NCBI GenBank assembly: GCA_039111535.1
Contig: JBCCIM010000003.1
Coordinates: 4,974-68,973 of the forward strand
DNA: 64,000 bases
Direction: 5' to 3'
Origin: Bacteroidota bacterium
GTDB taxonomy: Bacteria; Bacteroidota; Rhodothermia; Rhodothermales; JAHQVL01
Position numbers and translations under genes: made by a program. The notes beneath the pieces were generated by a model. That model saw only the letters and a program-made list of their open reading frames with translations. It did not search any database and was not told the DNA's origin. Positions 28,245 through 48,658 of this stretch are shown one piece after another. The stretch's first letter is position 1; every line of letters starts with the position of its first letter.

Positions 28245-28511
28245 TTATCCTTCATCATTCTTATATTCTGCCATTCGCAACCCAAAACCACCTGTTCATA
28301 ACAACATCAATTAGCAAAGCAACCCAGCGACAAATTGCGGACATCAGCCGGCACGACCTGCAATATCTCCACACTCTCTCTGTCTTTTAGAGAGGATATT
28401 AACAGAGATATCTCTTTTTTTCAGGTTTAATGTTACGCAATTCTCTTTAGCTGCAAATTCCCGCGTGTGAATTTCAGTTTCTCCCGGATTTACCCTAATG
28501 TACCGAATAAC

Positions 28512-32577: not shown

Positions 32578-33615
32578 CTAATTCAACTTAATGCGTAAAG
32601 AGGCCATTGCACGTGGCTCGCCGCTGCCGTTGCTTCCGATTTCTAGGGAAGGGACAACACGGTCGTTGTGCAGCTTTGCTGATACGGCTGCTTCGATGGC
32701 AGAGATAAAGTGGGTTGCTATGAGTAGCGTAGTCACGCGGGAAGCACGGCGCAGTACATCGTTAGCGTGTGCATGATCAGTAGCATACTGGAAGAAGCGC
32801 GGCGAGACGTTGGGTCGGCTATCATCGGGGCCGGTCATCGATGGGTCAATAGCAGCTGTGTATTCGCCGTTCTCAGAACGCCAAGCCGGATAATCTTCCC
32901 AGCCTGGTGCAAACTGATAATACTTGCCAACGAGTTCATAATACTGCTGCTCACTAAAATCAGGCAGCGTATGCGAGAAAGCAGCAAGGGTCTCCAGGTG
33001 AAACATCTCGCGTTCTAGCGACTGGATCTGCGAGAAGAAATCCAAAACAACAGCCCATTCCATATCATTCCAGGCATCAGGATTTCGAAAATCAATCTGA
33101 TTGGGCACCCCAACTGCCGGCGAAACAACCGTAGCATTAAAGTTCGTTTGCAGATAACTGCTGTAATCGTTCAGCCAGTTTGCGTATTTAGCCGGATCCC
33201 AAAAGGCATGGGCATACTGCTGGTAATCACCCTCAAGATTTGTCCCCTGGTTATTCCATACAATTGCTCCGGTAATAACCGCAGCTTCGATGGCAAACGC
33301 TGCAATGGCTTTGCCCCACTGCTTATTGTAAGCCTGCCCCAGTCCGGGTATTAATGCAGACATACCAAAAGCTGCGCCTACGCTTCGCTTTTTCGGTGCT
33401 TTCTCAGGAAAAACACCTTGCGCAGGTGCAAACTGCAGCGGTTGCTCATAGAGCAGAGCAGCTTTCAGGCTACCTTGCGTATGGGCGTGCGCCTTCTTCG
33501 GTTTTTTATCGTCATCATCCTCGACGGGTGATGCGTTGGCTGAGCATATGCCAAAACCCAGCAATAACAAGGCAAGCAAAAAAGAGGTTTGCTGTGCAAC
33601 TTTCATGATGCGCAA
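32578..33615 (-). CDS. DUF5683-like membrane/secreted protein
   Basis: Signal peptide. SALIPGLGQAYNKQWGKA followed by a hydrophobic helix resembles the DUF5683 signature as I recall it. The remainder is unassigned. Confidence 0.5.
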   Translation of the reverse strand: MRIMKVAQQTSFLLALLLLGFGICSANASPVEDDDDKKPKKAHAHTQGSLKAALLYEQPLQFAPAQGVFPEKAPKKRSVGAAFGMSALIPGLGQAYNKQWGKAIAAFAIEAAVITGAIVWNNQGTNLEGDYQQYAHAFWDPAKYANWLNDYSSYLQTNFNATVVSPAVGVPNQIDFRNPDAWNDMEWAVVLDFFSQIQSLEREMFHLETLAAFSHTLPDFSEQQYYELVGKYYQFAPGWEDYPAWRSENGEYTAAIDPSMTGPDDSRPNVSPRFFQYATDHAHANDVLRRASRVTTLLIATHFISAIEAAVSAKLHNDRVVPSLEIGSNGSGEPRAMASLRIKLN

Positions 33616-33643
33616 CCCTAGATCTATTTACAAATATGGGGCA

Positions 33644-34288
33644 TTAAAGATACGGGGCGATGGAGGCCTTGAAGAACTCATAATTTCTGGCACCCAGAAT
33701 GAACTCACGGATGGTGCCATCGCGGTCGATTACGTAGGACTCAGGCCGGCCTTCCATCATTTTGACATACGGCAGCGGAAGCGCCATCCCGTCATCGATG
33801 TAGCCGCTTTCTGTATCCAGCGGTATAAATTCGTTGAACGCGACCAGTTCTTCCCGACTTTCATCAGAAATGGTAATCACCCGCAGGCCTTGCTCGCGGT
33901 AATCCGCATAAAGGCGGTTGAGATCAGGCATTTCATCGAGGCATGGCGGACACCAGGTTGCCCAGAAATTGAGCAGCACTACTTCCCCTTTGTAATCGTC
34001 CAAAGATTTCGATTCCTCAGAGCCGAGCAAGGTAAAAGAGAACGCCGGCGCATCCCTGCCAACCGATGATTTCTGATCAGAAAACGGACCATGTACGGTG
34101 TCGCCGATGGTAAAACCCATCACCAGTAACATGCCAGAGAACACAATCAACAGTGCAGACAGGCCAACGCCAATCAACTCAGTCGGCGTCCGGGTATTCG
34201 GTTTTTTATTCCGGATTATCATGTAGATAAACCCCAGACCCACAAGCATCATCACAATGGCAGATGAAATCAGCGTATTCAGGTCCAT
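33644..34288 (-). CDS. TlpA/ResA-like thiol:disulfide oxidoreductase, membrane anchored
   Basis: Two N-terminal hydrophobic helices, followed by APAFSF....GEVVLLNFWATWCPPCLDEMP. Confidence 0.8.
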   Translation of the reverse strand: MDLNTLISSAIVMMLVGLGFIYMIIRNKKPNTRTPTELIGVGLSALLIVFSGMLLVMGFTIGDTVHGPFSDQKSSVGRDAPAFSFTLLGSEESKSLDDYKGEVVLLNFWATWCPPCLDEMPDLNRLYADYREQGLRVITISDESREELVAFNEFIPLDTESGYIDDGMALPLPYVKMMEGRPESYVIDRDGTIREFILGARNYEFFKASIAPYL

Positions 34289-34375
34289 GTCTGTACTATA
34301 TCTGTTTAATTAACCCTTACAGTGTTACGCCTAAAATAGGCTCCTGGTTTTATGACAAGGCAAGAAGTTGAACTA

Positions 34376-37300
34376 CTAAAGGTCAAATCCAAATAATACA
34401 CCAAAATGCCACTGCAATGACTGGCCATAGCGCACAGTATTTTCGCCAGTAGGTGTCAAAAACCCTTCATCCAGTTGGAAATCAAAGGCATCAAGGCCAT
34501 ACGTAGCACTCACGAATAGCGCCGTAGGCAGCAAGTAGAACGAACCCATGCCCAGGCGTAGTTCTGCGCCAACATCCTGACGCAGCGCGCCCATGTCACC
34601 CAGTCCGCCGTTCCAGGCAGCAGAGAAATCTGTGTATACCCTGCCATAGAGTTTGTCAAAATAGGCAAACATAAACTGCTTGTTGATCCGTGGAATCAGT
34701 GGCAGGGTATAGCTTGCCTGTAACCAAAGGGTCTCGTTGCCTCCTAGCGCATAAAACGGGTACCCGCGGGCGCCAACCAGGCCGCCAACGTAATCGTTGA
34801 AAAAGTCATCAACGGTCTTGCCTAAAATTGTAGATCCACGGGCACGCAAACCCAGGCCGTGCGGTGCGTTCATTATCTGGCCGGGCAATACCATGCTAAA
34901 CTTGGTATCAAGCGACAGCCGGTGCACCCGGTGCCGTTCGTAGATCGGCTCCAGTATCCCGTCTTCCAGATCAAACCTGTCGAGAAGCCGGCCTATTTCT
35001 CGCTCAAACCGCGCCTCCACCCGTAATCCATTGGGAATCACATTGCTGTGCCTATGGGGCGCAAACCATTCGAGGTAGCCCGCAAATTGGAAGGTGCTGC
35101 CGATGTAATACTTTGAAGTGAAGTCATCGACAAACCCGTCAAATTCCTTGGAGAAGAAGCGCTCCGTGGTCACGCTGTACGGACTGTACCGATAGCCGGC
35201 CTCCAGCATTGCAAAACGCGTAATTTTACTCCGCGCAGTTACACTCGCTTCCCACAGGTTGTACGACAAGTTAGCAAGGGTCGTATCCGGCAAACAGGCT
35301 GTACAGGGGAATTCTTCAATCGAGAGCCCTTTGTCTACATTCCGGCGAATATTGAACACCTCAAGCGAAATCTGCGGCGACCAGCGTTTCGGCAATAATC
35401 CCAGTCCCTTGCTGTAATCGAACTGAAAGAATACATCACGCTCAAGCTTTAGCAGACGAGAAGGCGAGAAGAAATCACCCACAGATGAGGCATCACGGGA
35501 AGTCAACCCTACCATCACGCCACCAAAAATACTCAACCCTTCGAGGATCTCCCGTGAAGACGCCAGGACGCCAACTTTGGTGTTGCGCAGCAACGTCTCG
35601 AGCCGGCCACGGTCTGCAAGGCGGACGTCGAGGCTCTGCTGCCGGCGCGACACATACTGGTCAAGCCGTAACACCGGGTAAATACTCCACGAGGTGAACT
35701 GGTTTTTGTACGGCGTTATCTCAAACGATTCTGAAGCGGGTGCCTCACCCTGTATCTCAGTAACCGACGGCCCTTTCAGATCGGTATCATTAAATGCATT
35801 CAGTTGTAACGCTTCTGGTGCCGCTGTGAAGGCCGTAGCATCTTTGAGGATAGCAGCAGGCGGTGTGTACGCCATGGTCGCAGCGGAAGGTGTTGCTGCC
35901 GGCAGTTCGTCGAAGTAGCCAATTTTGTAGCCGTCGTAGTCGTAGTGTGCGTATACCAGCCGGTTATTGCGCACGTCTGGCATAAATGCGCCGCCGAGCA
36001 CGTTTGTTACCTGCTCCGGCGCTGCATCAGCGTCCAGATCAAGCTTGTAGATATTGAAGATTCCTGTTTTGTCAGACGAGAAATACAGGGTACCGGCTTC
36101 GTCAAATGCCGGGCTCCGCTCATCATGCTTTGTTCTCAGTACACCTTCAGCTACACCTCTTCCATCTGCCGCAATACGATAGATGTCGCGGCCAACCGAG
36201 TGCTGCAAGCCATAATACAAGACGTCCCCGCCTGGGTGCCAGACCGGATCGGTTACTTGCGTGCCATCATTGTAAGTGGTGAGCTGCCGGATGCTATCAG
36301 AACTGGCATCAAGGACAAACAAATTTGTTGAGCCGTCAAGCTGACCAACAAAGGCAATTTTATCGCCGGCCGGGTTATAGACGGGCGCGGTTGCGCGTTG
36401 CCGCGTGGTCAGGCGTTTTGACTTTTTGGTCTCCAGGTCAATTTCATACAGATCAGCATACAAATAGCCTTCTGCTGTGTCTTTCCGCCTTACATAGGTC
36501 ATTTTCTGCCCACCCGGATGCCATGTATACGCACGTCCCACGCCCGATTTCACCTTGTGCCCAAAGGCGCAGGTATGGGTTAGCAGCGGTGCAGCTTCAA
36601 CATCCTTCAGATCCAGTGAAGTCAGCTTTCCTGATTCAAGGTCCTTGATGTATAAACTGAGCAGGTTGAAGTCTTTGCCTTTATTGGAGACGTAGGCTAC
36701 CCGATCTCCCGTTGGCGAAAAATGCGGATAAAAATTGCTAAAGCCGGCTGGTTCAAGCATATCGCCTTCAACCAGGTTCTGGCGCAAATCGTGGGTACTT
36801 TCTGTATAGGCATGCCGCATTTCCTGCACCCAATCCTGATACACCTGTCCGCCCGGGACACCCGTAGCATCCTTGATGGCGCGCTCCACATTCCAGTTTT
36901 CCCATTTACCCAGCGCAGCACTGACTTCCATGAGTGTTTCTTCGCCAAAGCGTTTGGCGAGGTAGTGGGTAAAGGCAAATCCCTGGTTATACACCGTCTC
37001 GCGCAGCAGGCTGTTGTGTGAGTAAAATCCGCCCATATCTTCGAGCGAAAGCTGCTCGCCTTCAAGCATGCGCGTGCGCAAGAGCATGTCGCGGTGGCTA
37101 TCCCAGCTGTCATAATTCAGCCACTCGCGCTGGTATTGCGCGGTACCTTCGGCCAGCCATGCGGGGTTGTTCAGGGTTGTAATGGGATAGGTTACAATGA
37201 CGTTGGGATACCCATACAGCACGTCGGGCCGGCGCACGTTTTCATAATCCAGCAACTGGAAATAGATAAAAGGTAACCGGCGATTGGCCTTCATCGACTT

Positions 37301-37753
37301 TTGCACCTGAACGATGTGCGTAAACTCGTGCGTGATTACATTGCGCAACCAGTTGTGATCACCACGCAACGGTGCATCGAGGCTGGGAGACCAGATTTCT
37401 ATTTTATTGTCGAAGAAGTAGGCCGCACCGTTGGAATAGTCTTCGTAATCCTTCAGAATGATCGCAACTTTGGTGTCCGGCTCAAGATCATAAAGTGAAG
37501 TTATAGGTCCGTACACATCCTCCGCAATGCGCGCTACAACCTGTGCCGTACGGCCACTGCCCTGCCCCTGCTCATCAGCATGGAAAATGATATTGAAGTG
37601 CTCGGTCTCGATGTTGTACCACTTCAATTCCGGCCGCGCGTAGTCATAGAAAGACAACGGAATCTGTGCTGACGCCTGTCTGGCCGGCAGGTAGCCCGAG
37701 AACGAGAGCCCGAGCACGATGAAGCAAAGCGATATGTAGAGTTTATTTTTCAG
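34376..37753 (-). CDS. Outer-membrane fusion protein: HExxH (MA-clan-like) domain + TolB/PD40-like propeller repeats + Omp85-type beta-barrel; probable CTG start
   Basis: NWLRNVITHEFTHIVQ is at nt 37316-37330. PD40-like repeats are present (PHFSPTGDRVAYVS, PVYNPAGDKIAFV, PVWHPGGDVLYY, RSPAFDEAGTLYFSS). The C-terminal barrel motifs are GGLVGARGYPF and DVGAELRLG, ending HFGVLFGFDL. The ORF-track GTG at 37717 truncates an otherwise canonical signal peptide, (M)KNKLYISLCFIVLGLSFSGYLPARQASA, which is only reachable from the CTG at 37753. Confidence 0.7.
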   Translation of the reverse strand: MKNKLYISLCFIVLGLSFSGYLPARQASAQIPLSFYDYARPELKWYNIETEHFNIIFHADEQGQGSGRTAQVVARIAEDVYGPITSLYDLEPDTKVAIILKDYEDYSNGAAYFFDNKIEIWSPSLDAPLRGDHNWLRNVITHEFTHIVQVQKSMKANRRLPFIYFQLLDYENVRRPDVLYGYPNVIVTYPITTLNNPAWLAEGTAQYQREWLNYDSWDSHRDMLLRTRMLEGEQLSLEDMGGFYSHNSLLRETVYNQGFAFTHYLAKRFGEETLMEVSAALGKWENWNVERAIKDATGVPGGQVYQDWVQEMRHAYTESTHDLRQNLVEGDMLEPAGFSNFYPHFSPTGDRVAYVSNKGKDFNLLSLYIKDLESGKLTSLDLKDVEAAPLLTHTCAFGHKVKSGVGRAYTWHPGGQKMTYVRRKDTAEGYLYADLYEIDLETKKSKRLTTRQRATAPVYNPAGDKIAFVGQLDGSTNLFVLDASSDSIRQLTTYNDGTQVTDPVWHPGGDVLYYGLQHSVGRDIYRIAADGRGVAEGVLRTKHDERSPAFDEAGTLYFSSDKTGIFNIYKLDLDADAAPEQVTNVLGGAFMPDVRNNRLVYAHYDYDGYKIGYFDELPAATPSAATMAYTPPAAILKDATAFTAAPEALQLNAFNDTDLKGPSVTEIQGEAPASESFEITPYKNQFTSWSIYPVLRLDQYVSRRQQSLDVRLADRGRLETLLRNTKVGVLASSREILEGLSIFGGVMVGLTSRDASSVGDFFSPSRLLKLERDVFFQFDYSKGLGLLPKRWSPQISLEVFNIRRNVDKGLSIEEFPCTACLPDTTLANLSYNLWEASVTARSKITRFAMLEAGYRYSPYSVTTERFFSKEFDGFVDDFTSKYYIGSTFQFAGYLEWFAPHRHSNVIPNGLRVEARFEREIGRLLDRFDLEDGILEPIYERHRVHRLSLDTKFSMVLPGQIMNAPHGLGLRARGSTILGKTVDDFFNDYVGGLVGARGYPFYALGGNETLWLQASYTLPLIPRINKQFMFAYFDKLYGRVYTDFSAAWNGGLGDMGALRQDVGAELRLGMGSFYLLPTALFVSATYGLDAFDFQLDEGFLTPTGENTVRYGQSLQWHFGVLFGFDL

Positions 37754-37762
37754 CGTCTTCCC

Positions 37763-40700
37763 TTAACGTATAATCGCAAGTTTGATCAACCGGGTTTCTT
37801 GAGCCCCATCAGCAGCCAGGGCTTCGAGGCGAGCATAGTACAGGCCGCTGCCGGCATCCGTCTGCCAGCGGATATCTGTGGCTGTCCCACCGACAACTTC
37901 TTCCACCACCAGTTTGTCGATGAGGCCGCCAGCAGAATCGATGATGGTAATGGTTACCTGTACATCCTGTGATGGAGAAAGCCGGAAATGTGTTTCACCG
38001 TTTCGAATTGGGTTAGGCCAATTGTAGTTTTCATTTTCTACAAAGATTCCGCTCGGTCTAGGCCCTGATGTAGACTCAAAAACTTCTTCTGCGTCTACAA
38101 AATTGGTTCTATAAAGATTGTGCGCCTGCTCTCCCCACCAAATATCTATCAGGTTTTCCAGCACCCAGGCTTTGACACTGCCTTCCCGGTCTATAGCATA
38201 GAGCGTGTTGCCACGAATAAGCGGTGTAGCAATAATATCAGCGCCTACCGCTAGTGGAAATCCTGGGATTTGTTGCGTTGCATCTTCTTCGTCCAGGCTA
38301 TAGCCGTAGATATATCCATCACGCGCAGCTACTAGAATTTCCCAATTTGAAGAGCCGCCTGTTAAGTTGGCTACAATAGGTTGGGTTGACGCCTCAGCCG
38401 GTATGACAATCGGGAATCCCTCAAATAGTCCACCACCGGCATGGAAAGCGAGCAGGTTTGGCCCAGAGGTAAGCAGTACCTCAAGTAGTCCGTCGCGATT
38501 GACATCTAGCAAAATGGGCAGTGCACTTGCTTGATAGGTAGCTCCGGACGGCGCAAACTGCTGCAAGTCTATTACACTTGTATTACCATCTGCGCGTAAG
38601 AATACCACCTTCTCCCCGACAACATCGGTAAACGCACCAACTAGTCCGGATTCGTCTTCCCCCATGACCAGTTGCCCTACATTACCGGCATTTGCCGGAT
38701 CATAGCGCCAGGAAACACCACAGGCATCACAGGTAACGCCTCCTTCATGCAATCGGACAACATCGCCGCGCTTGTTCAACGCAATCGCAATATCATCTGT
38801 ACTGGGTAGTAGCGTAGATGCAAACGATGCGTCTGGATCAAGGTCAATCGAAACAAGTGACGAAGCGCCATTAGGATTGCCAAGCAACGCATATAGCCGG
38901 TTCTCGCGGTTATCATAGATCAACTGATTCCGCGTTGAGCGCACCCGTAAGTCGGGTAACACAATCTCGCGCTCTGCTCCGTTTTCGAGAAGCACCAAAC
39001 GGGCCGTCTGGGCATCACCAGAGGCACCAAGTACAGCCAGACGATTCCCCGGCAACAAAACCGGGCTGTCTACGACGGCGCGCTGGATAAGCAAGGGATC
39101 AGCAACACCTTGGGATAGCACCGCAACTTCATTCACCCTGCTCTGCACAACAATGCCATCTGACACATCTGCAAATGCCGTGAGATAAGCATCTGATGAC
39201 ATCGTAGGATCCTCAATGACAGGAAAACCGTCCAGCGGGGTCACATTCGGGTTAGCCGGCCGGCCATACGTAAACGACATCGACGGCCCAGGCGGGGTAA
39301 AGCCATTCAACTCGACGAAGCTTGCCCCACCCGCGTTTGTATTGCTATTCGGATAGGTATCCTCACCAAACCGGTTGGTATACAAGCGAATTTCTTCGCC
39401 GGCACCGTTGATCACAACAACCGGATTATCCTGGTAAAAGAAATCAAATGGGGTACCAAGAAAGGCCTGGGGCCCAAAAATGTTGTCAGAAGGAAAGCCA
39501 ATGTCTTGCGCGCCATCTGCTTCTTCAAGGTCAATTGCGCGTAAGTTCACGTCGTTGTTGACCTGGTTTAAAGGCAGGCGCTCCGCAAGCAGCCGCTCAT
39601 CGATATGCCAGATCAGAATGCCGCCTTCGAGCCGGTTGCCATCAACATCCAGCCCGCCCGGCATGGCCCAGTCGTAGTCATCTACATCAACAACTACCCC
39701 GCCAACAAATGCGTCAATTGATGTAGAATTAAAGTCTTCTTGCCCCATTTCTACCGTCTGGGTGACCAGCGCGCCATCCTGGTAGATGGTCATGGTCAGT
39801 TCGTCGTTGGCAACATCGCGGTTGCGGTTTTCGACGAGGAAATATTCTGATGCCGAGATAGGCACACGCGCCATTTCGTTGGGCGTATTGAGGCCGGCTG
39901 CATTTAGCGTAATGGTCTGGGCATCAGCGCCTTCTACAACAACAGGATCAGCCCAGCCAAGGTACAACTTGGTCCAGGCACTGGGTTCAGGAGGAAACAG
40001 GCCGTTGAAGGCAAAAAGTCCTAGCGGATCCATGAGGCCAAACGGCCCGATAGCGCTCTCCCCTGTTGTGGTGTCAAACAGGTCCGGGACTTCCAGGAAG
40101 TTGAAAAAGCTGGAGGCCAGCAATCCGTTGATTGAAAACTCAACCAGAAATGGAATGTCCTGGATAAAATCAAAGCCTAACCGCGACTCTGTACGCGGCA
40201 TCAGGATGGTGTGGTTGACCGGAAAGTTGTTGAACGAGATTGCATTCCCCGGCAATAGTCGCTGCAGCGAAGGCTCGTTGAAGTAAATGGTTGGGAGGTC
40301 CTGCGGGGTTTTGTCGAGGCTGGTGCCTACCAGTTCAATGTCGCGGCCCACGCCGGCGTGAAACAGTACAAAGGCTGTAGTCGCCGGGTTAAACTGCGAC
40401 ATATCAAATGAAGACTGCGCATCCGCAAGGCCCCATGCTTCGTCTACTAGCGAAGCCAGTTTGCTTAGCTCAGCATCTGAACTCGCTTCCAGGCCGGTTG
40501 GGCTATACGCAGCCATTTCCTGCGAAACCACTACCACTTCGGGAATGAGGTGTGTATTGACAGTGGTTTGCCCGTCGGACACGCGGGCCACGTAATTGGA
40601 CAAAAAATCGAGATGGGCTTCGAAGTAGCCGGCGTCGTGCGGGAGCGGGTCAACAATGCTCCGCAGCGTATCAAAAAGGGCGCCTGAGAATTGCCCTGTA

Positions 40701-41002
40701 CCGGTTGTAAAGCGAGAGGTGTCTGCCTGAAATGCTACGCGGAGGGCAACGACGTCGTATTGTGGTGCAGCGGGGCTTTGCAAGAGACCACCGGCAACGG
40801 CATCAAGGGGCAAAGCCGGCAAATCACGGTTCACCGCTGCGCGTGCATTCAAGTAAGAGGAAGACAGGTTCAGTTGCCGATTCCCTGGTGCTTCATTTGC
40901 TTTCTGCTGTGCAAAAAGCGAAGCAGGCACCCATAAAATGAGTGCCAGCAAAAGTAAGAGAGATCGTTCCAGAACACCGTCAATACGCTTCGCTTTAACC
41001 AC
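37763..41002 (-). CDS. T9SS cargo-type protein: M6-like metalloprotease domain with a degenerate active site + beta-propeller/FG-GAP-like region + C-terminal sorting domain
   Basis: GTG start with a signal peptide. FVLFHAGVGRD, INGLLASSFFNFLEVPDLFD, GLMDP and PPEPSAWTKLYLGW align to M6/InhA-type blocks, but HExxH is replaced by SSFFN. The C-terminus reads NYNWPNPIRNGETHFRL...GLYYARLEA...KLAIIR. Confidence 0.7.
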   Translation of the reverse strand: MVKAKRIDGVLERSLLLLLALILWVPASLFAQQKANEAPGNRQLNLSSSYLNARAAVNRDLPALPLDAVAGGLLQSPAAPQYDVVALRVAFQADTSRFTTGTGQFSGALFDTLRSIVDPLPHDAGYFEAHLDFLSNYVARVSDGQTTVNTHLIPEVVVVSQEMAAYSPTGLEASSDAELSKLASLVDEAWGLADAQSSFDMSQFNPATTAFVLFHAGVGRDIELVGTSLDKTPQDLPTIYFNEPSLQRLLPGNAISFNNFPVNHTILMPRTESRLGFDFIQDIPFLVEFSINGLLASSFFNFLEVPDLFDTTTGESAIGPFGLMDPLGLFAFNGLFPPEPSAWTKLYLGWADPVVVEGADAQTITLNAAGLNTPNEMARVPISASEYFLVENRNRDVANDELTMTIYQDGALVTQTVEMGQEDFNSTSIDAFVGGVVVDVDDYDWAMPGGLDVDGNRLEGGILIWHIDERLLAERLPLNQVNNDVNLRAIDLEEADGAQDIGFPSDNIFGPQAFLGTPFDFFYQDNPVVVINGAGEEIRLYTNRFGEDTYPNSNTNAGGASFVELNGFTPPGPSMSFTYGRPANPNVTPLDGFPVIEDPTMSSDAYLTAFADVSDGIVVQSRVNEVAVLSQGVADPLLIQRAVVDSPVLLPGNRLAVLGASGDAQTARLVLLENGAEREIVLPDLRVRSTRNQLIYDNRENRLYALLGNPNGASSLVSIDLDPDASFASTLLPSTDDIAIALNKRGDVVRLHEGGVTCDACGVSWRYDPANAGNVGQLVMGEDESGLVGAFTDVVGEKVVFLRADGNTSVIDLQQFAPSGATYQASALPILLDVNRDGLLEVLLTSGPNLLAFHAGGGLFEGFPIVIPAEASTQPIVANLTGGSSNWEILVAARDGYIYGYSLDEEDATQQIPGFPLAVGADIIATPLIRGNTLYAIDREGSVKAWVLENLIDIWWGEQAHNLYRTNFVDAEEVFESTSGPRPSGIFVENENYNWPNPIRNGETHFRLSPSQDVQVTITIIDSAGGLIDKLVVEEVVGGTATDIRWQTDAGSGLYYARLEALAADGAQETRLIKLAIIR

Positions 41003-41057
41003 AGCCTCTGTATTCTTTAAATGACCTATATGACCTGGAACGATCTCTAACCCTTAC

Positions 41058-42230
41058 TTACCGATTCAGATTCAACAGCAGAGAGAAACGCATGGTGTTG
41101 GCCAGCGGCGAATCTTCTTCAACAGCGTAGATATACGAGAAGTCTACCCCGATGATGTTGTAACGGATACCAGCACCCAGCGTGAGGAATTTCCGGTTAC
41201 CGTTGTATGGGTTCTCGTAGAAGTAACCCGTACGCAGCGCAAACAGGTTGTTGTACCAGTACTCAAGGCCGGCGCCGATGGTCAGCTGGTCGATCACGCC
41301 AAGCGTTTCGAGTTCAGCGTCTTCATCCTGAAACGCGTTTGTACGCACTTCAATAGGTGACCAGGAAGAGAAAATGGCTTTGTAGAACGGATCCGCAACG
41401 TTGTTTTCATCAACTTTGATGAGGTCTTTGTTGAAGTCGTTTACAAGCGTCAACTTGTTAAATTCGTCGAACTCAACCGTGAACGCATAACCAAAGCGGA
41501 GGTTGGTTGGAATCGGGTCAGCCTGCTCACTATCTGAGTACTGTACTTTAGGTCCCATGTTGGCAAGGTTGAAGCCGGCAGAGAACTGACCCTGCGAGCT
41601 ACCCAGCGGGAATGGACGTGTACGGTAGAGGGCTGCGAGGTCAAACGCCCCAACAACACCTGCTTTTGTTTCCTGCCCTTCTACCTGGGTGCCAGGTGCG
41701 AGGTTGGAATAGATGAAGCGAACGCTTGTACCAATTGAGAACGTTTCTGACAGCTTCACACCGTAAGACAGACCAACCGCGAGGTCATAAGACCGGAACG
41801 TACCTGTTGGGTTGTTCTGGCCGTCACGTCCTTCGTGTTCGCCGAGGAACAGGTAGGTAACATGTGCACCAAACGTTCCCCAGCCTGGGAAATGTTTTTT
41901 GGCCATGAAGTATTCGTAGAACAAGCCGGCGTTAAATTCAGGCAGCCAGTTGGAGTGCGTAAGGCCCAGTTCGGTACCTTCCTGGAATGCAAGACCTGCA
42001 GGATTCCAGAAGTTGGCGCTAGCATTGTCGGCCAGGGCTACACCCGCATTACCCATACCGGCAGAGCGGCTATCGGGCTCAATCTTCAGGAAAACAACAG
42101 CTGCGCCACCCACCTGAGCCTGCGCAGGAGAAGCAAATCCTAAAACCCCGAGGACCGCGACCAGGCATGCAGTAACTGCATTGCGGCGCTTGACATAGGA
42201 GGCCAGACGGATAACAAAATCAGAAGTCAT
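41058..42230 (-). CDS. porV: Type IX secretion system outer-membrane shuttle protein PorV (LptO)
   Basis: The internal ATG at 42230 gives a signal peptide ending ASPAQAQ. AAVVFLKIEPDSRSAGMGNAGVALADNASANFWNPAGLAF and the following beta-barrel pattern are characteristic of PorV. Confidence 0.85.
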   Translation of the reverse strand: MTSDFVIRLASYVKRRNAVTACLVAVLGVLGFASPAQAQVGGAAVVFLKIEPDSRSAGMGNAGVALADNASANFWNPAGLAFQEGTELGLTHSNWLPEFNAGLFYEYFMAKKHFPGWGTFGAHVTYLFLGEHEGRDGQNNPTGTFRSYDLAVGLSYGVKLSETFSIGTSVRFIYSNLAPGTQVEGQETKAGVVGAFDLAALYRTRPFPLGSSQGQFSAGFNLANMGPKVQYSDSEQADPIPTNLRFGYAFTVEFDEFNKLTLVNDFNKDLIKVDENNVADPFYKAIFSSWSPIEVRTNAFQDEDAELETLGVIDQLTIGAGLEYWYNNLFALRTGYFYENPYNGNRKFLTLGAGIRYNIIGVDFSYIYAVEEDSPLANTMRFSLLLNLNR

Positions 42231-42373
42231 GATTGTAGAAAGATTATAATGAGTAAGCATTGCTGTGAGCTGCAAGCCATGTTTAAAACTGCATGACGCG
42301 GCGCACAATATCGTTTATTTCAACATCCGAGGATGCGAAGTACTGGTAGAGGTTGTCCCTCAAATTGAGGCCA

Positions 42374-45300
42374 TTACCTAATAATGGCCAGTTTTTCAAT
42401 TTTCTCGGATACCTGTCGTTCGCCATCCTGGCGCTCAACCTCTACCCGAAGTTTGTATAGATATACCCCTGTTGCAAGGCGGTCTTCGTCTTCGTCTCTG
42501 CCATTCCACGGTAGCTGAATTACACCGCCGATCAGGGGTTCGTCCGTTTCGATAGAACGGATGAGCCGGCCGCTCAGCGTGTAGATCCGGATCTGGATTG
42601 AAGCACTGGTGCCAATTGGCTGATTGTGCTCAAACACAAATTTGGTATCTCCCGCAGTTGGGTTGGGATAGTTGTAAACGTTCTTCAACACCAGGTCTTC
42701 ATCCGCAGCCACAAAATAATCCAGTGTGGCGGATGAGGAGTTGTTGAGGACATCCCAGGCACGTAATGACAAAGAATTAGAACCTAGTTGTTGCTGCGAC
42801 AAATCCCACTCTACGACACCGTTCTGGAATGAGTTGGTCTCGCTTCTGAAGCCGCTGCTAATGTCGATGGCATTTTGTTCATCTTCATTAACAACAAGCA
42901 GCATTTCGTGACCAACACCAGCACCTACGGTGTTGATTCCGCTCTCGTCAAACAGCTTAACAATAAGTTTAGGTTCAGGAGACGTGAGTCCACCTGAAAC
43001 AAAGGTGGTATCGTTCAGGAATAGCGTTATCTGTGGTCCATCGTTGTCATTAGGAGGGTTGGCCGACGTGCCACCCACCAGGAAGTTTTCGTTATACCCC
43101 AGTGCATGGGAATTATCACCGAAGGCATATACTGAAAGTCGTCCCGCTTGATTGCTGTACGAAATATCTTTTGGCACAACGAACGTTGCATTAAACGCAC
43201 CACTGTTTGCCTGCACCTGTCCGCGCCATATTAAATCTTGTCTTACTGTGTAATATGGTGTAGCAAGATGCTGCTGGTTGTCAATCGGAACGCGTCTTTC
43301 AGCGTCAAATACTGTTAAATCTACTACGCCGTTAAAACTATCATCAATCGTGCCATTCAACGTTTGAACTTCACCTTTGATGTTAATTTTATCAAGCGCC
43401 CTTACCTGTGCCTGTTCTCCATCTACAGCAACATCATTAATTTCTGTCACCGCAACGTTACGACCGGGCAGCCCCAGGCGCATTGTTGGATCGCCAAGCA
43501 GGTTGAATTTTCTGTTGTTACCCTGCAGCCCTACACGGGTATTTTTGGTAAGCAACAGCACATCACCCAGCCGGCGCGGACGACCTTCATCATCCGCTTC
43601 AAACATGTCACGGGCCAATTGGCGGTTCAAGCCAACATTAAGGCTGTTAATGTCTGAAGATGTATAAACAAGCCGCACGGTTGTTAGCAGTGCAACGGCA
43701 CCACCATTCGGGTTCAGCAGCAATTCTTCAGCACCACTCTGGTAGTTGGCAAGGTCCCACCAACCAAAAGAACACGTTGCGGTCACAAATATGGCGAGCC
43801 GATCATAGTTGTCGAGCTCCTTTGCGTCTTCAGCGGTGAAAATGCCTTCCTGTGCAAGGCCTTCTTCTCCACCATGTCCGCTATAGTTAACCAGCAGTGT
43901 GCCCTCTTCGAGGCTGTTAATAATCTCTTCCCGCGCACCCGGAATTTTGAAGCCGTTTCGAAAAATGCGATCAAATGAAGAAGCGTATATCTTTTTCACG
44001 TTCACATCAGCAAACTGGCCTTTGACCAGTTCAGCAACAACATCCGCGTTTTGCAAATGAAGATCTTTATCGTCTGTTGTACCCGACAATCCGGTAGGAC
44101 CGTCATCAGATATAAACGTATAACGCGAGCGCCACGCGCCATACGTTACAGGATTTTCATAATGTTTGATCTTTTCGAGCAGTACCTGGGCTTCTTCCTC
44201 GTTCTGTACGGTGAGCCGGCCCACGCCAATATCCATGCGATCAACAGGCTCTGTCAGCGCGCCCCCAACAGAAGGAATGCCAAAGCCGCGGTACACCCAG
44301 GCGCCTTCCTCCTCATCCAATAATCCGAAGTAGTCGTCACTCGTGTAGGTACGATCTGGGGTAAACGAGTCAACCGTCGCGTACGGCGGAATCCAGTTTG
44401 AGAGGCCAATGGCATCGCCCCCCAGGTTTCTGAAGTTGAAATGTCCATCTCCGTAAAAGAGGGCATACTTGAGGCGCTGCGCATCTGTCGGGGCCTTGTC
44501 ATACACAAAGCGCAAATAGTCCCGTACTGCGCGCATATCAACAAGGCCACCGGAAAACTCGTTGTAGATTTCTTCAATCAACGTGACGCGTACATTCAGG
44601 CCGCCTGCAGTTCGCATGGCTGCGAGTTCATCCGCATAGGGTTTGAATATGGCCGGCGTCACGATCACGAAATCAGGAAGATCGGTGAGCCCATGCAAGT
44701 TCTGCGCAGCAACAGGCGTGATCTGGCTGCCGTCGAGGGTGACAGCTGACTGTTCAGCAAACGCAATCAGTTCACGTGGCGTGGTACCAACTTCAAGCTG
44801 AACGCGAAATGCATTGCCTGACCCGGAGACGCCAAGACGGGTAATTTCATCAGGATTTGTGACATCCCACACTTGCGGCGGAGCGCCAAATCCAGCCAGC
44901 ACAAACTCAAGCCGGCCTGATGCGCCTGCCGGCGTTGCAAACCGTACAATTCCATTTTGCGCAGCCAGCGTTTGCGGATAAAAGGCACGCATCCAATCCA
45001 GCGCAACTTCAGGGCTGTTTGGTTGCTGCTCCAGCGTCATAGAAAGATTGAGCCGGCCACCAGATGCCACGGTCTCAGTAAACGTTGTCTCTGCAAGGCG
45101 GGCAGAAGGTTCTTCCTGTCCAGCCCGTACCGTACCCGTACGTACCTGTCCCAATTGCGTTTCGCCGTTACTAAATCGTGCAAAGGCAGATGGGTTCGAC
45201 TTGATGGCCACGCGGCCCTGGTACAAAACATCGCCTCCGGTAAATCCAGCGGGTAGCGAGTCTGTCACAATATCCAGCCGGCCCGTAGGGTCAATCGGAC

Positions 45301-46420
45301 TGCTAACCCATGTGAGGCCACTTCCGTTTTGTTTGCTCCAGTTAAAATCGTCAAAATCAACAAACAGGCGGCCCGTGACTTCGGAAAAAACGGTCGCATC
45401 GGGGTAATCAGGAAACGCCGGCGCTTCAACCCGAACGCCCTCTTCAGCGCCTACTTTCAGGAAATAAAAGTTCTGAACAGAAAACGGGTTGACGTAGTGC
45501 TCCCAGGCTTCGTCTTCTGCATTGAAGGTCCAGCCAGTTGTTGCGGCACCATAAAACAGTACGACATCTGCATCATCAAACGAACCATCTCCTCCGCCTC
45601 GCGAAAATACCGGGTTCTGCAAGAGGTCGGCTGCGCGTTCATCGCCATTTAATTCCGGCACAGGTGCACCGCCGTTACCAAAAATCTGAATACGATCTGG
45701 ATCAATGGTATCTGGATTGAGGCCAGCCTCGCTGAGGAATGTGCGGTCGATGCGATAGATACCGTCGCGGGTAACGGGAAACTTGATTACACCGTCTTCA
45801 GCCAACACACTTTCTGTGACGGCAAGATGTGCGTTGAATACGATAGGGTCTCGGCGACCAGCAGTAAAACCAGTGTTGGTACCGTTATAGCCCGTTGCAA
45901 CATTGTTGCCCTGCGGGTGCGATACGCGCACAACAAGCCGGCGGTACCGTTTCAAGGTGCCGGCACCGCGGTCATACGTCAACAAACGGAAATTCAGAGA
46001 AGCTACAGGCGCTTTACGGAATGTGCCGGGGCTCGATACGTAGACGGGTGTGCCTTCGAGGGCCAGTGCAACAGAATCTGAGGCGACATTGAGCGGCAGT
46101 GCAATTTCGTCGTAGTCTGAAGCAAGGACGCTGACCTGCGGGATCGCACGCGTTGGTAACCGCAGCATCTCACTCACATCAAAGGTGCCGGCCACCGCGG
46201 CATAAGCGCTTCGGTTAGTCAGGGATACGCTTTGGGAAGAATCCATGGCAGCCTTGAGGGACTGCATCCAGGTCGCCTTAATTTCATAAGTCGTCTGGGT
46301 AGCCTGCTCATCGAGCACTACAATGGAGGTCTGCTGCCCGAATGCAATATTCGGTACCATACCTGGCAATACCAGGCCGGCAACCAGAAAAAGAAGAGCT
46401 ATATACTTCTTCAAGCGCAT
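42374..46420 (-). CDS. porU: Type IX secretion system sortase PorU (peptidase C25 family)
   Basis: 1348 aa with a signal peptide. C25 blocks are DFVIVTPAIFKPYADELAAMR, YALFYGDGHFNFRN, the VNYSGHGGEEG catalytic His region and the FVTATCSFGWWD catalytic Cys region. The CTD-like end reads YNYPNPTAGDTKFVFEH...GVYLYKLRV. Confidence 0.85.
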   Translation of the reverse strand: MRLKKYIALLFLVAGLVLPGMVPNIAFGQQTSIVVLDEQATQTTYEIKATWMQSLKAAMDSSQSVSLTNRSAYAAVAGTFDVSEMLRLPTRAIPQVSVLASDYDEIALPLNVASDSVALALEGTPVYVSSPGTFRKAPVASLNFRLLTYDRGAGTLKRYRRLVVRVSHPQGNNVATGYNGTNTGFTAGRRDPIVFNAHLAVTESVLAEDGVIKFPVTRDGIYRIDRTFLSEAGLNPDTIDPDRIQIFGNGGAPVPELNGDERAADLLQNPVFSRGGGDGSFDDADVVLFYGAATTGWTFNAEDEAWEHYVNPFSVQNFYFLKVGAEEGVRVEAPAFPDYPDATVFSEVTGRLFVDFDDFNWSKQNGSGLTWVSSPIDPTGRLDIVTDSLPAGFTGGDVLYQGRVAIKSNPSAFARFSNGETQLGQVRTGTVRAGQEEPSARLAETTFTETVASGGRLNLSMTLEQQPNSPEVALDWMRAFYPQTLAAQNGIVRFATPAGASGRLEFVLAGFGAPPQVWDVTNPDEITRLGVSGSGNAFRVQLEVGTTPRELIAFAEQSAVTLDGSQITPVAAQNLHGLTDLPDFVIVTPAIFKPYADELAAMRTAGGLNVRVTLIEEIYNEFSGGLVDMRAVRDYLRFVYDKAPTDAQRLKYALFYGDGHFNFRNLGGDAIGLSNWIPPYATVDSFTPDRTYTSDDYFGLLDEEEGAWVYRGFGIPSVGGALTEPVDRMDIGVGRLTVQNEEEAQVLLEKIKHYENPVTYGAWRSRYTFISDDGPTGLSGTTDDKDLHLQNADVVAELVKGQFADVNVKKIYASSFDRIFRNGFKIPGAREEIINSLEEGTLLVNYSGHGGEEGLAQEGIFTAEDAKELDNYDRLAIFVTATCSFGWWDLANYQSGAEELLLNPNGGAVALLTTVRLVYTSSDINSLNVGLNRQLARDMFEADDEGRPRRLGDVLLLTKNTRVGLQGNNRKFNLLGDPTMRLGLPGRNVAVTEINDVAVDGEQAQVRALDKINIKGEVQTLNGTIDDSFNGVVDLTVFDAERRVPIDNQQHLATPYYTVRQDLIWRGQVQANSGAFNATFVVPKDISYSNQAGRLSVYAFGDNSHALGYNENFLVGGTSANPPNDNDGPQITLFLNDTTFVSGGLTSPEPKLIVKLFDESGINTVGAGVGHEMLLVVNEDEQNAIDISSGFRSETNSFQNGVVEWDLSQQQLGSNSLSLRAWDVLNNSSSATLDYFVAADEDLVLKNVYNYPNPTAGDTKFVFEHNQPIGTSASIQIRIYTLSGRLIRSIETDEPLIGGVIQLPWNGRDEDEDRLATGVYLYKLRVEVERQDGERQVSEKIEKLAIIR

Positions 46421-46850
46421 GATTGAGTCAGAATATCAGACTGACAATGGAGTTCTTTCCTTATACACATAAAACGTGCAGTCAGGAAAATCGTACAGTA
46501 GCGAAACGTACTGTGTACTCCTTGCTGTTACGGTTAGATGATGGATATCTCAAAAATGAGACTAAATTTGTTCGTAACAGTCTTGATCGATAGGCAGGTT
46601 GCTTGAAGAATTTTAATTAAGCGTACGTAAGCGACAGTTCGCTAGCCATGGTAATACTGATTCAACAAATCAGCAAATTTCCGGCCGTATTACGTGATAG
46701 GAGATAAAAACATCTTTCGCTCCTTGCAAGTTCCGTTAATTGCACGAAAGAATGGAATGTTACCATATGATCATATGGCTTGCCCCAATGCCGTACGTGT
46801 AAAGCAGCCGCCCGGCCATTTTTGCAGGCCGGCTCACCACAGGTATCGGT

Positions 46851-47555
46851 TCAAAGCTCTCCTTTTTCAAGATTACCCGCTCTGATTTTTTCTTTCAGGG
46901 CTGCAATGGCTTTCAGGTCTTCTTCAAACCTGGCACTCACCGTAGCAATATCAGCGATGGGCTTCATCAAATCCGCCGAGATTTGCATCGAATCTGTTAA
47001 CATTTGGAGCAACTGAATATTGCCCGACAGAATGGTAAGTGGATTGCTGATGCTGTGGTAAAACACAGAAAGCTCGTTGCCAATTTGGGCAAGCCAACGC
47101 TCCTGTTGCTCGTTTTGCAAAGCCAGTTGCAGGCGCTGGGTATCGCTGCTCGGGAAGAGCCGGCTCCGCACCTCGTCAGCCACCCTTTCACCCGTTTGCT
47201 CATCGATGGCTACAGGTATCATATTTTCAGTGAGCTCCGCAGGTCCAACAAGGGCCCCAGCCAACATGACCGACGCAAATGCAGGTAGCTCATAACGCTG
47301 CGAAAGTTGCTCCAGCGGCCAGTCGGTTACAAGAAATACGTGCGCAGCCTGCACTAGCCGGGCTGGTTCGATATCTACTGACTCAGCACGCTCCGACAGG
47401 GAGACACAGGGAATACCAGCAACATGATCACTCAGTTGGGTAACAACCATTTGCGCCAACGCATCATCATTAAATAAAAGGCCAATACATGGGGCATCGG
47501 AGTTAGTACCTGACGGCACAACACCACCGGTGCGCACAAGCGAGACATTGTGCAT
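46851..47555 (-). CDS. Receiver-like domain + HisKA/DHp-like helix protein lacking an ATPase domain
   Basis: 234 aa. The N-terminal ~120 aa show a receiver-like pattern (IGLLFNDD ... HVFLVTDWPL). The C-terminal region LAQIGNELSVFYHSISNPLTILSGNIQLL resembles an H-box. No HATPase_c follows. Confidence 0.5.
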   Translation of the reverse strand: MHNVSLVRTGGVVPSGTNSDAPCIGLLFNDDALAQMVVTQLSDHVAGIPCVSLSERAESVDIEPARLVQAAHVFLVTDWPLEQLSQRYELPAFASVMLAGALVGPAELTENMIPVAIDEQTGERVADEVRSRLFPSSDTQRLQLALQNEQQERWLAQIGNELSVFYHSISNPLTILSGNIQLLQMLTDSMQISADLMKPIADIATVSARFEEDLKAIAALKEKIRAGNLEKGEL

Positions 47556-47785: not shown

Positions 47786-48640
47786 TTACAGTTCCGCTAG
47801 CGTTCGCGTATCTACCACCTGGACGCCCCTGTCGGTTTGTTTGAGGCTCGCTACAGCTACTTCAGGATCATGCTCAAAAAACAGGTGCCAATTCTTTGCT
47901 ACAGCTTCAGCCAGGAATGCTTCTTTCTCTTCGATGGTGACCATCGGCTGTAGATCATAAGCCATATTCCAGGCAGATGGAATGTGGGCATGCGTAGGCA
48001 ACAAATCTGCCGTATACACCAGCGTTGTGGAGCCATCTGCAATTTTCACCAATTGCATCGCTTCCGTGTGCCCATGGGCGACAAACACTTCGATGCCGGG
48101 CGCCAGCTGGGTTTTGCCATCAAGAAAATTTAATACGCCGGCATCTTCGAGTGGCTGCAGATTTTCTTTCAGAAATGAATTGCGTTCACGCACGTTCGGA
48201 TGCTGGGCCCAATCCCAATGTTCGCGCTGTACGTGGTGTCGTGCATTTTTGAAAACAACTTCCAACTTGTCGCCTACCCTGCGGGTGCTGCCACCACAGT
48301 GGTCAAAATGCAAATGGGTTATGATGAGGTCTGTTACATCATCCGCGGTATAGCCGAGGGTATTCAGCGAGCGTTCCAGCGAAGCGTATTCCTGGTCTAC
48401 AGCAAAAATACTGGCAAACTTTTCGTCGTATTTATCACCTAATCCGTTATCGACCAACATGAGCCGGTCTTCTCCTTCGAGGAGCAAACACCGCATGTTG
48501 AGGGGAATACGGTTTTTTGCGTCCGCAGGTATTTTGCGTTCCCAAAGGGGTTTGGGCACAATGCCAAACATGGCGCCACCATCGAGTCCAAAACGCCCTG
48601 TTTCGACCGTGTGCAGCGTATAGTTTCCAATTTTAGGCAT
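47786..48640 (-). CDS. MBL-fold metallo-hydrolase
   Basis: The LIITHLHFDHCGG zinc motif and downstream AHGHT and D/H ligand positions are present. Confidence 0.8.
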   Translation of the reverse strand: MPKIGNYTLHTVETGRFGLDGGAMFGIVPKPLWERKIPADAKNRIPLNMRCLLLEGEDRLMLVDNGLGDKYDEKFASIFAVDQEYASLERSLNTLGYTADDVTDLIITHLHFDHCGGSTRRVGDKLEVVFKNARHHVQREHWDWAQHPNVRERNSFLKENLQPLEDAGVLNFLDGKTQLAPGIEVFVAHGHTEAMQLVKIADGSTTLVYTADLLPTHAHIPSAWNMAYDLQPMVTIEEKEAFLAEAVAKNWHLFFEHDPEVAVASLKQTDRGVQVVDTRTLAEL

Positions 48641-48658
48641 GTCCTGCGTGGGATAGAA

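Follow-up and report, generated by a model that had tools for sequence, protein, structure and literature searches.

A gene cluster linked to PorU and PorV across FCB lineages encodes three candidate components of the T9SS

A five-gene cluster that recurs across several deep FCB lineages comprises PorU, PorV and three candidate T9SS components: a pseudo-protease with a predicted CTD (M6i), a zinc peptidase predicted to be anchored by an Omp85-type barrel (P4) and a DUF5683-like protein. In no fewer than four named lineages the three remain linked to PorV, the gene of the shuttle, which suggests that they are undescribed parts of the T9SS, and we infer that M6i and P4 are dedicated accessory components with a role in attachment or processing. 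Work on the T9SS comes almost entirely from a few Bacteroidia, and the cluster bears on the handling of cargo after its translocation (processing, anchoring and clearance) and on how far these steps are conserved. The original prediction had described six co-directional T9SS genes, knowing of no account of such a module. The six genes, all on the minus strand, and the identities assigned to them are borne out: a dead M6-like domain, an HExxH domain joined to PD40 repeats and an Omp85-type barrel, a TlpA-like protein and a DUF5683 protein. The claim of novelty holds in part. The M6i family is already curated by NCBIfam, but for the module itself we found no description in the literature on PorU2/PorV2, on DUF5683 or on the T9SS of Rhodothermota or Calditrichota, and the T9SS papers found by full-text search describe none of the three candidates.

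The cluster occupies positions 32578–46420 of the window, the 64,000-nucleotide stretch of DNA that was analysed. It consists of six tightly packed genes, PorU, PorV, M6i, P4, TlpA-like and DUF5683-like, separated, from the PorU side, by gaps of 65–143, 55, 9–45, 87 and 28 nt. Its sole long gap is the 430-nt non-coding region upstream of porU (46421..46850, minus strand), which is the probable promoter region of the cluster; a single weak sigma-70-like match lies upstream of porU at 46447–46419. No minus-strand terminator-like site was found in any intergenic gap, and promoter-like sites occur no more often than in shuffled sequence. The scan thus gives no sign of separate transcription units, in keeping with the expectation that the genes lack promoters and terminators of their own. 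The M6i stop and P4 start codons overlap in ATGA fashion, or lie a few nucleotides apart, in many loci; in the window, 9 nt separate the M6i stop from the CTG start of P4. Downstream of the cluster lies a convergent LytTR two-component pair. The upstream genes (an MBL-fold lactonase-like protein, a LON N-domain protein, a Na/solute symporter, NadA and LolD) were checked and judged to be unrelated housekeeping genes.

The first two genes are true members of their families. PorU (42374–46420, minus strand, 1348 aa), the C25-type sortase of the T9SS, which ends in a type A CTD, scores 985 bits against the PorU model NF033707 (cutoff 420), 305.9 bits against PF01364 and 27.1 bits against TIGR04183. 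PorV, the T9SS outer-membrane shuttle barrel, is encoded at 41058–42308 on the minus strand, with a longest open reading frame of 416 aa; its true start is likely M27 at 42230, with a signal peptide directly after it. The protein scores 299.5 bits against the PorV model NF033710 (cutoff 250) and 128 bits against PF19572, and only 82.9 bits against the PorQ model NF033711 (cutoff 220).

M6i (37763–41002, minus strand, 1079 aa) carries a signal peptide, an M6-like domain without HExxH (residues ~80–600), one beta-propeller (~600–970) and a predicted CTD sandwich (~993–1078). It had been predicted to be propeller-rich; its AF2 model (pLDDT 80) instead contains a single propeller, together with seven CTD strands at 993–1078. 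The protein matches NF052323, the NCBIfam family "T9SS-dependent M6-like inactivated metalloprotease", at 775.4 bits (cutoff 600) over residues 77–1079 and model positions 39–1043, and distant M6i proteins match the same model over their full length at 454–573 bits. As the family name implies, the zinc site has been lost: the H[ED]xxH motif is absent from the window M6i and from four distant homologues, and TIGR03296, the model of the M6 domain, covers residues 303–401 only and stays below its cutoff. The sequence is nevertheless strongly constrained, with 137 invariant columns among 33 sequences. The CTD of the window protein scores 16.6 bits against TIGR04183 (cutoff 23), and those of distant M6i proteins 29.5–40.5 bits. 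We found no paper that describes family NF052323. Its name presents M6i as T9SS-dependent, hence as cargo, and is silent on any linkage to PorV, to an Omp85-fused peptidase or to a DUF5683-like gene.

P4 is encoded on the minus strand at 34376–37717 (GTG start, 1113 aa) or 34376–37753 (CTG start, 1125 aa), and the CTG at 37753 is the only start that yields a signal peptide. In GTG numbering, the peptidase motif HEFTH lies at 130–134 and its glutamate partner at E190, followed by a propeller (~319–602) and a predicted 16-strand barrel (~667–1113). H130, E131, H134 and E190 are invariant among 32 sequences, as befits an MA-clan (gluzincin) peptidase, and HExxH is kept in every P4 examined, including 7 of 7 distant homologues. 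The window protein reaches 19.3 bits against PF13485 (Peptidase_MA_2; GA 32.4), and its homologues P0437 and P0480 score 41.9 and 35.0 bits. The PD40/TolB-like propeller matches the Tricorn_N, Tricorn_2nd and DPPIV_N models and TolB structures; it accounts for all of the best 50 matches in a whole-protein fold search, which is consequently uninformative on the barrel.

The barrel had been called Omp85, and this can be upheld only through distant relatives. The AF2 model of P4 has 16 long barrel strands, with an invariant GARGYPFY in the loop that joins strands 11 and 12, in agreement with the Omp85 pattern of 16 strands and (V/I)RG(Y/F) in loop 6. Direct assignment of the window barrel failed: PF01103 matches none of 15 window-clade barrels, even at E up to 10, a PDB profile search with the P4 barrel gave no sequence match, and hhalign against E. 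coli BamA, and against BamA together with TamA, was non-significant (E 0.38 and 0.22), aligning only the RGY loop and strands 12–13. The assignment was recovered from six distant P4-family members, which score 28.3–34.5 bits against PF01103 (GA 24); the window-clade barrel profile aligns with one such member at an hhalign probability of 99.6% (E 7.6e-24). Placement of the P4 barrel in the Omp85 superfamily depends on this transitive homology. The PorV/PorQ-family models NF033709 and NF033711 do not match P4. No POTRA domain was found: the modelled linker at 603–666 lacks a beta-alpha-alpha-beta-beta unit, and Pfam gave no POTRA match. The barrel belongs to a small family that goes with this one architecture, with 256 representatives among 1.84 billion proteins and full-length members of ~980–1185 aa in which the barrel is C-terminal.

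The last two genes differ in how widely they accompany P4. The TlpA/ResA-like thioredoxin-fold protein (33644–34288, minus strand, 214 aa) has two N-terminal TM helices and a CPPC motif, and belongs to AhpC-TSA/Redoxin (PF00578 74 bits, PF08534 57 bits), while scoring below the NCBIfam cutoffs for ResA (NF002854, 87.5 bits against 170) and TlpA (55 bits against 230). Its gene adjoins P4 in 53 of 59 Rhodothermales loci; none was called at the same position in nine distant linked loci with downstream sequence. It is therefore an accessory specific to the Rhodothermales version of the cluster. The suggestion that it serves Cys-containing cargo of the window found no support, the sole Cys feature that tracks TlpA being a Rhodothermales-specific CTAC motif in P4. 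Even this is a coincidence between clades only; a correlation inside Rhodothermales had to be rejected, CTAC being universal there, also in the six loci without an adjacent TlpA. The DUF5683-like protein (32578–33615, minus strand, 345 aa) has a signal peptide, a hydrophobic PGLGQxYN segment, a soluble W/Y-rich part of ~190 aa and a C-terminal hydrophobic segment. Its membership in DUF5683 is given by a PF18935 match of 39.7 bits (GA 26.7) that covers residues 80–138 only, and NCBIfam has no family for the gene or its paralog. Homologues lie directly after P4 in 56 of 59 Rhodothermales loci and in nine distant loci, and the distant copies are related to the window protein at BLASTP E values of 1e-12 to 1e-22.

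To quantify the linkage, we scanned 80 M6i-centred loci from 79 Rhodothermales genomes, counting each neighbour where the contig reaches it. PorV is adjacent in 72/72 loci, PorU in 62/62 and P4 in 69/69, and the PorU-PorV-M6i-P4 order is kept at M6i identities down to 39%. As flank controls, the upstream lactonase-like gene is present in 44 loci and the window's downstream neighbours in 0; the core is kept in 100% of loci, the flanks in 0–70%. There is one locus per genome, with the single exception of a MAG in which the gene is split across two contigs. Outside Rhodothermales we sampled 12 loci, picked from P4 relatives and not from PorV, and the PorV-M6i-P4-DUF5683-like array recurs in 10 of them; those with taxon labels come from Calditrichota, Ignavibacteriales, candidate division KSB1 and the "FCB group". 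The other two P4-like genes (L086 and L092) stand alone, without PorV or M6i, which indicates that the P4 fold is not obligatorily tied to the T9SS. PorU is non-adjacent in L087, L091, L094 and L095. The conserved core is PorV-M6i-P4-DUF5683-like, with PorU sometimes elsewhere in the genome. The predicted synteny with porU-porV is thus borne out across the whole of Rhodothermales and in several further FCB lineages, and the proposed six-gene unit is narrowed to this core: the flanking genes are less conserved, PorU can be remote and TlpA is confined to Rhodothermales.

We lean, if only slightly, toward reading the cluster as an operon for the post-translocation end of the T9SS, in a form that would be typical of non-Bacteroidia FCB lineages, with PorV and PorU joined by M6i, P4 and the DUF5683-like protein as constant extras. 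M6i would use its predicted type A CTD for export by the T9SS. Because its M6 catalytic motif is lost but its fold is strongly conserved, the likeliest role for it is that of a binding or scaffold subunit kept on the surface; an enzyme, or a cargo that acquires nutrients, is less likely. P4 would be anchored in the outer membrane by its Omp85-type 16-strand barrel, with its intact gluzincin site gated by the TolB/tricorn-like propeller. By analogy with all Omp85 proteins of known topology, including PlpD, whose enzyme domain is periplasmic (PMC11116518), the peptidase and propeller most likely face the periplasm. Translational coupling would hold M6i and P4 at a fixed ratio, and the two probably pair across the outer membrane, next to PorV, with the DUF5683-like protein as a third constant partner. 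At the PorV/PorU station, the P4 peptidase may then clear away polypeptides that carry a CTD, or CTD fragments once these are released, and M6i may supply docking on the surface side. A bolder version, which we consider somewhat unlikely, joins M6i, P4 and the DUF5683-like protein in a so far unrecognised complex that would span the outer membrane and serve as an ancestral or alternative T9SS attachment and processing station in Rhodothermota, Calditrichota, Ignavibacteriota and KSB1. Such a station would replace PorZ/PorQ and couple the handling of surface cargo by PorU/PorV to periplasmic-side proteolysis of CTDs or stalled substrates.

The analogy with Porphyromonas drawn in the original prediction can be taken further, with M6i and P4 as functional stand-ins for PorZ and PorQ, such that the P4 barrel would anchor the retained M6i CTD on the surface and M6i would hand an anchor glycolipid to PorU, as PorZ does A-LPS. 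The gross gene logic fits, with a propeller-CTD protein and then a barrel protein directly after porU-porV, and the translational coupling of M6i and P4 and the NAD-dependent epimerase genes that follow the cluster in several distant loci are also consistent with it. The best match in the M6i fold search, among low-TM multi-propeller matches, is the BT4663 sensor domain, a propeller-plus-beta-sandwich architecture that the PorZ structure paper names as the closest to PorZ (PMC5121618). However, the TM-scores of that match are just 0.14–0.20, and the same search offers no route to PorZ kinship: PorZ is absent from the best 50 matches, in which PorU chain 6za2 ranks 46th. Sequence similarity between M6i and PorZ is confined to the CTD, where a distant M6i protein reaches 24 bits against the PorZ equivalog NF052228 and the window M6i has no match, and a PDB profile search with M6i found no PorZ match at E up to 1. 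Moreover, M6i has one propeller, not two, the P4 barrel is of the 16-strand Omp85 type and not of the PorV/PorQ family, and the conserved P4 peptidase site would be left without a role. The analogy thus survives as gross gene logic without homology, and a functional replacement of this kind appears unlikely.

On a plainer view, M6i would be an ordinary surface protein secreted by the T9SS, and P4, unrelated to it, a peptidase of the outer membrane or periplasm that might scavenge peptides or maintain envelope quality. Neither would take part in secretion itself, and their place beside porUV would reflect a gene order passed down by descent, or common regulation. The "T9SS-dependent" name of the NCBIfam family agrees with this, as do the further type A CTD cargo genes scattered across the window, the two P4-like genes without T9SS neighbours and the position stability, in many Rhodothermales, of some housekeeping genes upstream of porU. 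We nonetheless consider it quite unlikely, since the linkage survives across several named deep FCB lineages in which the surrounding genes have wholly changed, the core far exceeds its flanks in Rhodothermales, and the genes are single-copy and translationally coupled; the invariant columns of a protein that has lost catalysis would be unexpected in a dispensable nutritional enzyme. That the P4 barrel acts like BamA/TamA, inserting or assembling T9SS outer-membrane components or M6i/PorU surface proteins with the peptidase as attached quality control, is highly improbable: the transitive Omp85 homology and the L6 (x)RG(Y/F) signature with its following strand motifs, in the topologically correct position, speak for it, but the P4 model has no POTRA domain, the window-clade barrel is too divergent for detection by PF01103, and PlpD (PMC11116518) exemplifies Omp85 scaffolds that were put to uses other than assembly.

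Compared with the PorU-PorV-PorQ-PorZ attachment complex of Porphyromonas gingivalis, the cluster has true, adjacent PorU and PorV orthologues and likewise encodes two more proteins, one with a propeller and a predicted CTD and one with an outer-membrane barrel. PorZ has two seven-bladed propellers, whereas M6i is non-homologous to it, with a dead M6-like protease domain and one propeller; in place of a PorQ/PorV-family barrel, P4 appears to combine a divergent Omp85-type barrel with an apparently active zinc peptidase and a TolB-like propeller; and the DUF5683-like protein is a fifth constant member, for which the cluster provides a first functional context. The TlpA-like protein shares with TlpA/ResA/DsbE oxidoreductases a thioredoxin fold, CPPC in a WxxWCxxC context and an N-terminal membrane anchor, but it falls below every equivalog cutoff, has two TM helices and is linked to a T9SS cluster rather than to cytochrome maturation genes.

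Within the Omp85 superfamily, P4 would represent a new architecture of enzyme fusion. Like the patatin-Omp85 protein PlpD, it places an enzyme domain N-terminal to a 16-strand Omp85-type barrel. Unlike PlpD and the PF00149 'Metallo' subfamily (Heinz and Lithgow 2014), it carries an MA-clan HExxH peptidase and a propeller, has no recognisable POTRA domain and a very divergent barrel, and is encoded inside a T9SS cluster; the "Omp85-metalloprotease" subfamily of those authors was considered as a match and rejected, being built on PF00149 with a different architecture. Its propeller is of the type found in tricorn protease, the DPP-IV/S9 oligopeptidases and TolB. In contrast to such propeller-gated peptidases, P4 is a gluzincin-type metallopeptidase, not a serine peptidase, and is anchored in the membrane by its predicted barrel.

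All six minus-strand ORFs claimed in the original prediction were found at their positions. They run from PorU, the T9SS sortase (42374-46420, 1348 aa), through PorV, its outer-membrane shuttle (41058-42308; the longest ORF has 416 aa, with a signal peptide after M27 and a start at about 42230), to M6i, a CTD-bearing protein (37763-41002, 1079 aa), P4, a peptidase/propeller/barrel protein (34376-37717, 1113 aa counted from GTG), a TlpA-like protein (33644-34288, 214 aa) and a DUF5683-like protein (32578-33615, 345 aa). The genes are separated by gaps of 9-143 nt, a 430-nt non-coding stretch at 46421-46850 lies 5′ of porU, and the array ends at a convergent LytTR two-component pair. No minus-strand terminator-like site was found in any intergenic gap of the cluster. 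A perfect palindrome with an 8-bp stem (GGCCATTA…TAATGGCC) spans the PorU stop codon at 42369-42389; with no T-run after it on the coding strand, it is unlikely to be an intrinsic terminator. The hypothetical gene immediately upstream of porU (46851-47555, 234 aa) is weakly conserved.

To compare gene order, we scanned one genome per species with an M6i profile and obtained at least 416 relatives; the 80 that ranked highest define 80 loci in 79 genomes, all Rhodothermales/Rhodothermia and including Roseithermus sacchariphilus, with M6i identities down to 39%. Order and strand are the same wherever the contig reaches: PorV is in place at 72 of 72 such loci, PorU at 62 of 62, P4 at 69 of 69, the DUF5683-like gene at 56 of 59 and TlpA at 53 of 59. 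As a flank control, an upstream lactonase-like gene recurs in 44 loci and a LON N-domain gene in 40, and the window's two immediate downstream neighbors were found in none of the 80, so the core is conserved more than its surroundings. In the window, the upstream pair (47786-49309, minus) encodes a YtnP-like lactonase of the MBL fold and a protein with a LON N-terminal domain; their conserved position reflects background synteny that has no connection with the T9SS.

A second sample, centered on P4 where the Rhodothermales scan was centered on M6i, covered the contigs that carry 12 distant relatives of P4. An M6i-like CTD protein precedes P4 in 10 of the 12. The order PorU-PorV-M6i-P4-DUF5683-like is present in L084, L088 (a Calditrichota MAG), L089 (FCB group) and L093 (Ignavibacteriales). 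L090 has the PorV-M6i-P4-DUF5683-like core with a divergent PorU nearby, and the same four genes occur with a non-adjacent PorU in L087, L091, L094 (KSB1) and L095 (Calditrichota strain LG24). On the short contig L083, the M6i C terminus lies directly upstream of P4, with an ATGA overlap; P4-like genes stand alone in L086 and L092. NF052323, the M6i family model, matches the distant M6i proteins end to end (454-573 bits), and homology links the DUF5683-like genes of the distant loci to that of the window (E 1e-12 to 1e-22). Because the distant arrays share PorV-M6i-P4-DUF5683-like, these four genes form a conserved core, with PorU as a usual member and TlpA as an accessory confined to one order. 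The linkage to porU-porV on which the original prediction hinged is present, then, both in Rhodothermales and in distant loci. In a rival, less probable explanation, M6i would be ordinary cargo and P4 an unrelated peptidase.

PorU and PorV are clear orthologues of their namesakes (NF033707, 985 bits against a cutoff of 420; NF033710, 299.5 bits against 250). M6i matches NF052323, 'T9SS-dependent M6-like inactivated metalloprotease', with 775 bits (cutoff 600), and HExxH is absent both from M6i and from four distant homologues, which bears out the dead M6-like domain originally predicted. Its alignment of 33 sequences (41-77% identity) contains 137 invariant columns. In the AF2 model (pLDDT 80), residues from about 80 to 600 form the M6-like domain, those from about 600 to 970 make up one beta-propeller, and 993-1078 fold into a sandwich of seven strands. 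The NF052323 accession adjoins those of the 'putative PorU2' and 'putative PorV2' models (NF052323-NF052325), to which the window's PorU and PorV give weak matches. These neighboring accessions suggest that curators met M6i-like proteins alongside a second PorU/PorV-like system, for which we found no paper.

In P4, a GTG start falls in the middle of the signal peptide, and no ATG, GTG or TTG start that includes this peptide exists on the minus strand at 37717-37765. CTG 37753 is the sole codon that restores it (MKNKLYISLCFIVLG…ASA/Q); it lies 9 nt past the M6i TAA, in the same reading frame, and accounts for the earlier figures of about 1125 aa and 9 nt. The closest relative has the same CTG (L001, 13238-13300), whose counterpart in L018 (2169-2250) is TTG. 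Many Rhodothermales loci instead have an ATGA in which the M6i stop and the start of P4 overlap, a classic signature of translational coupling.

The peptidase and propeller of P4 agree with the original prediction: the gluzincin signature HEFTH…E190 is invariant, HExxH is retained in all seven distant homologues examined, and the propeller is TolB/tricorn-like. The Omp85 barrel fared less evenly. In the AF2 model (pLDDT 76), the C-terminal barrel has 16 long strands, and an invariant GARGYPFY sits in the loop that joins strands 11 and 12, where Omp85 proteins have the VRG(F/Y) motif of loop 6. Direct tests failed: none of 15 window-clade barrels matches PF01103 even at E up to 10, a PDB sequence search found no match, and hhalign against E. 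coli BamA or BamA+TamA was not significant, the aligned part being exactly loop 6 and strands 12-13. A barrel-only profile retrieved just 256 of 1.84 billion representative proteins at E up to 0.001, and those of full length are about 980-1185 aa long and end in the barrel; judged by sequence, the barrel is a small family bound to one architecture. However, six distant members exceed the PF01103 gathering score (28.3-34.5 bits; GA 24), and the window-clade profile aligns over its full length with one PF01103-matching member (probability 99.6%, E 7.6e-24). We therefore accept the barrel, via transitive homology, as a putative, very divergent Omp85-superfamily member. A second rival explanation, an improbable one, would give P4 an Omp85-type assembly role; no POTRA domain is recognizable in it. 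We rejected membership in the published 'Omp85-metalloprotease' subfamily, which rests on PF00149 and has another architecture (PMC4104836). The stand-alone P4-like proteins (L086, 9302-12484; L092, 10001-13306) have HExxH, propeller and barrel, with RmuC/LysR neighbors in one case and GH94/B3_4 in the other; lacking PorV and M6i neighbors, they indicate that the P4 architecture is not restricted to the T9SS cluster.

In the TlpA-like protein, two TM helices accompany a thioredoxin motif, WCPPC. P4 contains a CTAC (CxxC) motif at residues 805-808 (window 35294-35305), in what is predicted to be extracellular loop 3 of its barrel; the motif is invariant in 65 of 65 Rhodothermales loci. Because the distant loci have neither this motif in P4 nor an adjacent TlpA-like gene, there is a weak hint that the client of the TlpA-like protein is P4 itself, rather than cargo. 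The DUF5683-like gene scores above the PF18935 gathering threshold, over about 60 residues only. Directly after it, distant loci carry a shorter gene of 216-262 aa (L087 14085-14735, L088 14661-15407, L089 14119-14859, L090 14216-14911, L091 14256-15032, L094 13955-14743, L095 14252-14968), often followed by an NAD-dependent epimerase/dehydratase gene. In the three copies compared (L087, L088 and L089), it shares N- and C-terminal motifs with the DUF5683-like gene, which makes these copies its paralogs; the copies scanned (L088, L089, L095) match no curated family. Elsewhere in the window, three more ORFs have T9SS type A sorting domains (28467-29759, plus; 17270-19225, plus; 5456-8407, minus), one with tandem-95-like and one with leucine-rich repeats. 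In the one that measures 983 aa, the CTD match lies mid-protein (residues 173-249), so it may be two genes or have a wrong start.

From the linkage, motifs and predicted folds that the analysis establishes, we infer a complex, a topology and a substrate. M6i would be a surface-retained, non-catalytic T9SS component and P4 a zinc peptidase anchored in the outer membrane, the two produced in a fixed ratio and acting with PorV/PorU. The peptidase and propeller of P4 would face the periplasm, an orientation proposed by analogy to Omp85 proteins whose topology is known, among them the enzyme-bearing PlpD (PMC11116518). The most plausible job for the pair would be clearing CTDs or stalled CTD-bearing substrates. 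The original prediction knew of no such module; M6i is already curated and the PorU/PorV parts are known, and we found no paper describing the M6i-P4-DUF5683-like module or its PorV linkage, an MA-peptidase/propeller/Omp85 fusion, or any DUF5683 function. The module, with its putative function, is relevant to T9SS and Omp85 specialists.

The remaining rival explanation, that M6i and P4 functionally replace PorZ and PorQ, the partners of PorU and PorV in the Porphyromonas attachment complex, extends the analogy first drawn and receives no support from homology. In the fold search, M6i matched the BT4663 sensor best, a protein that the PorZ paper likewise gives as the closest architecture to PorZ (PMC5121618); with TM-scores of only 0.14-0.20 this match carries little weight, and PorZ itself does not appear in the first 50 matches. 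The likeness of M6i to PorZ is confined to the CTD, and the barrel of P4 belongs to a different family from those of PorV and PorQ.
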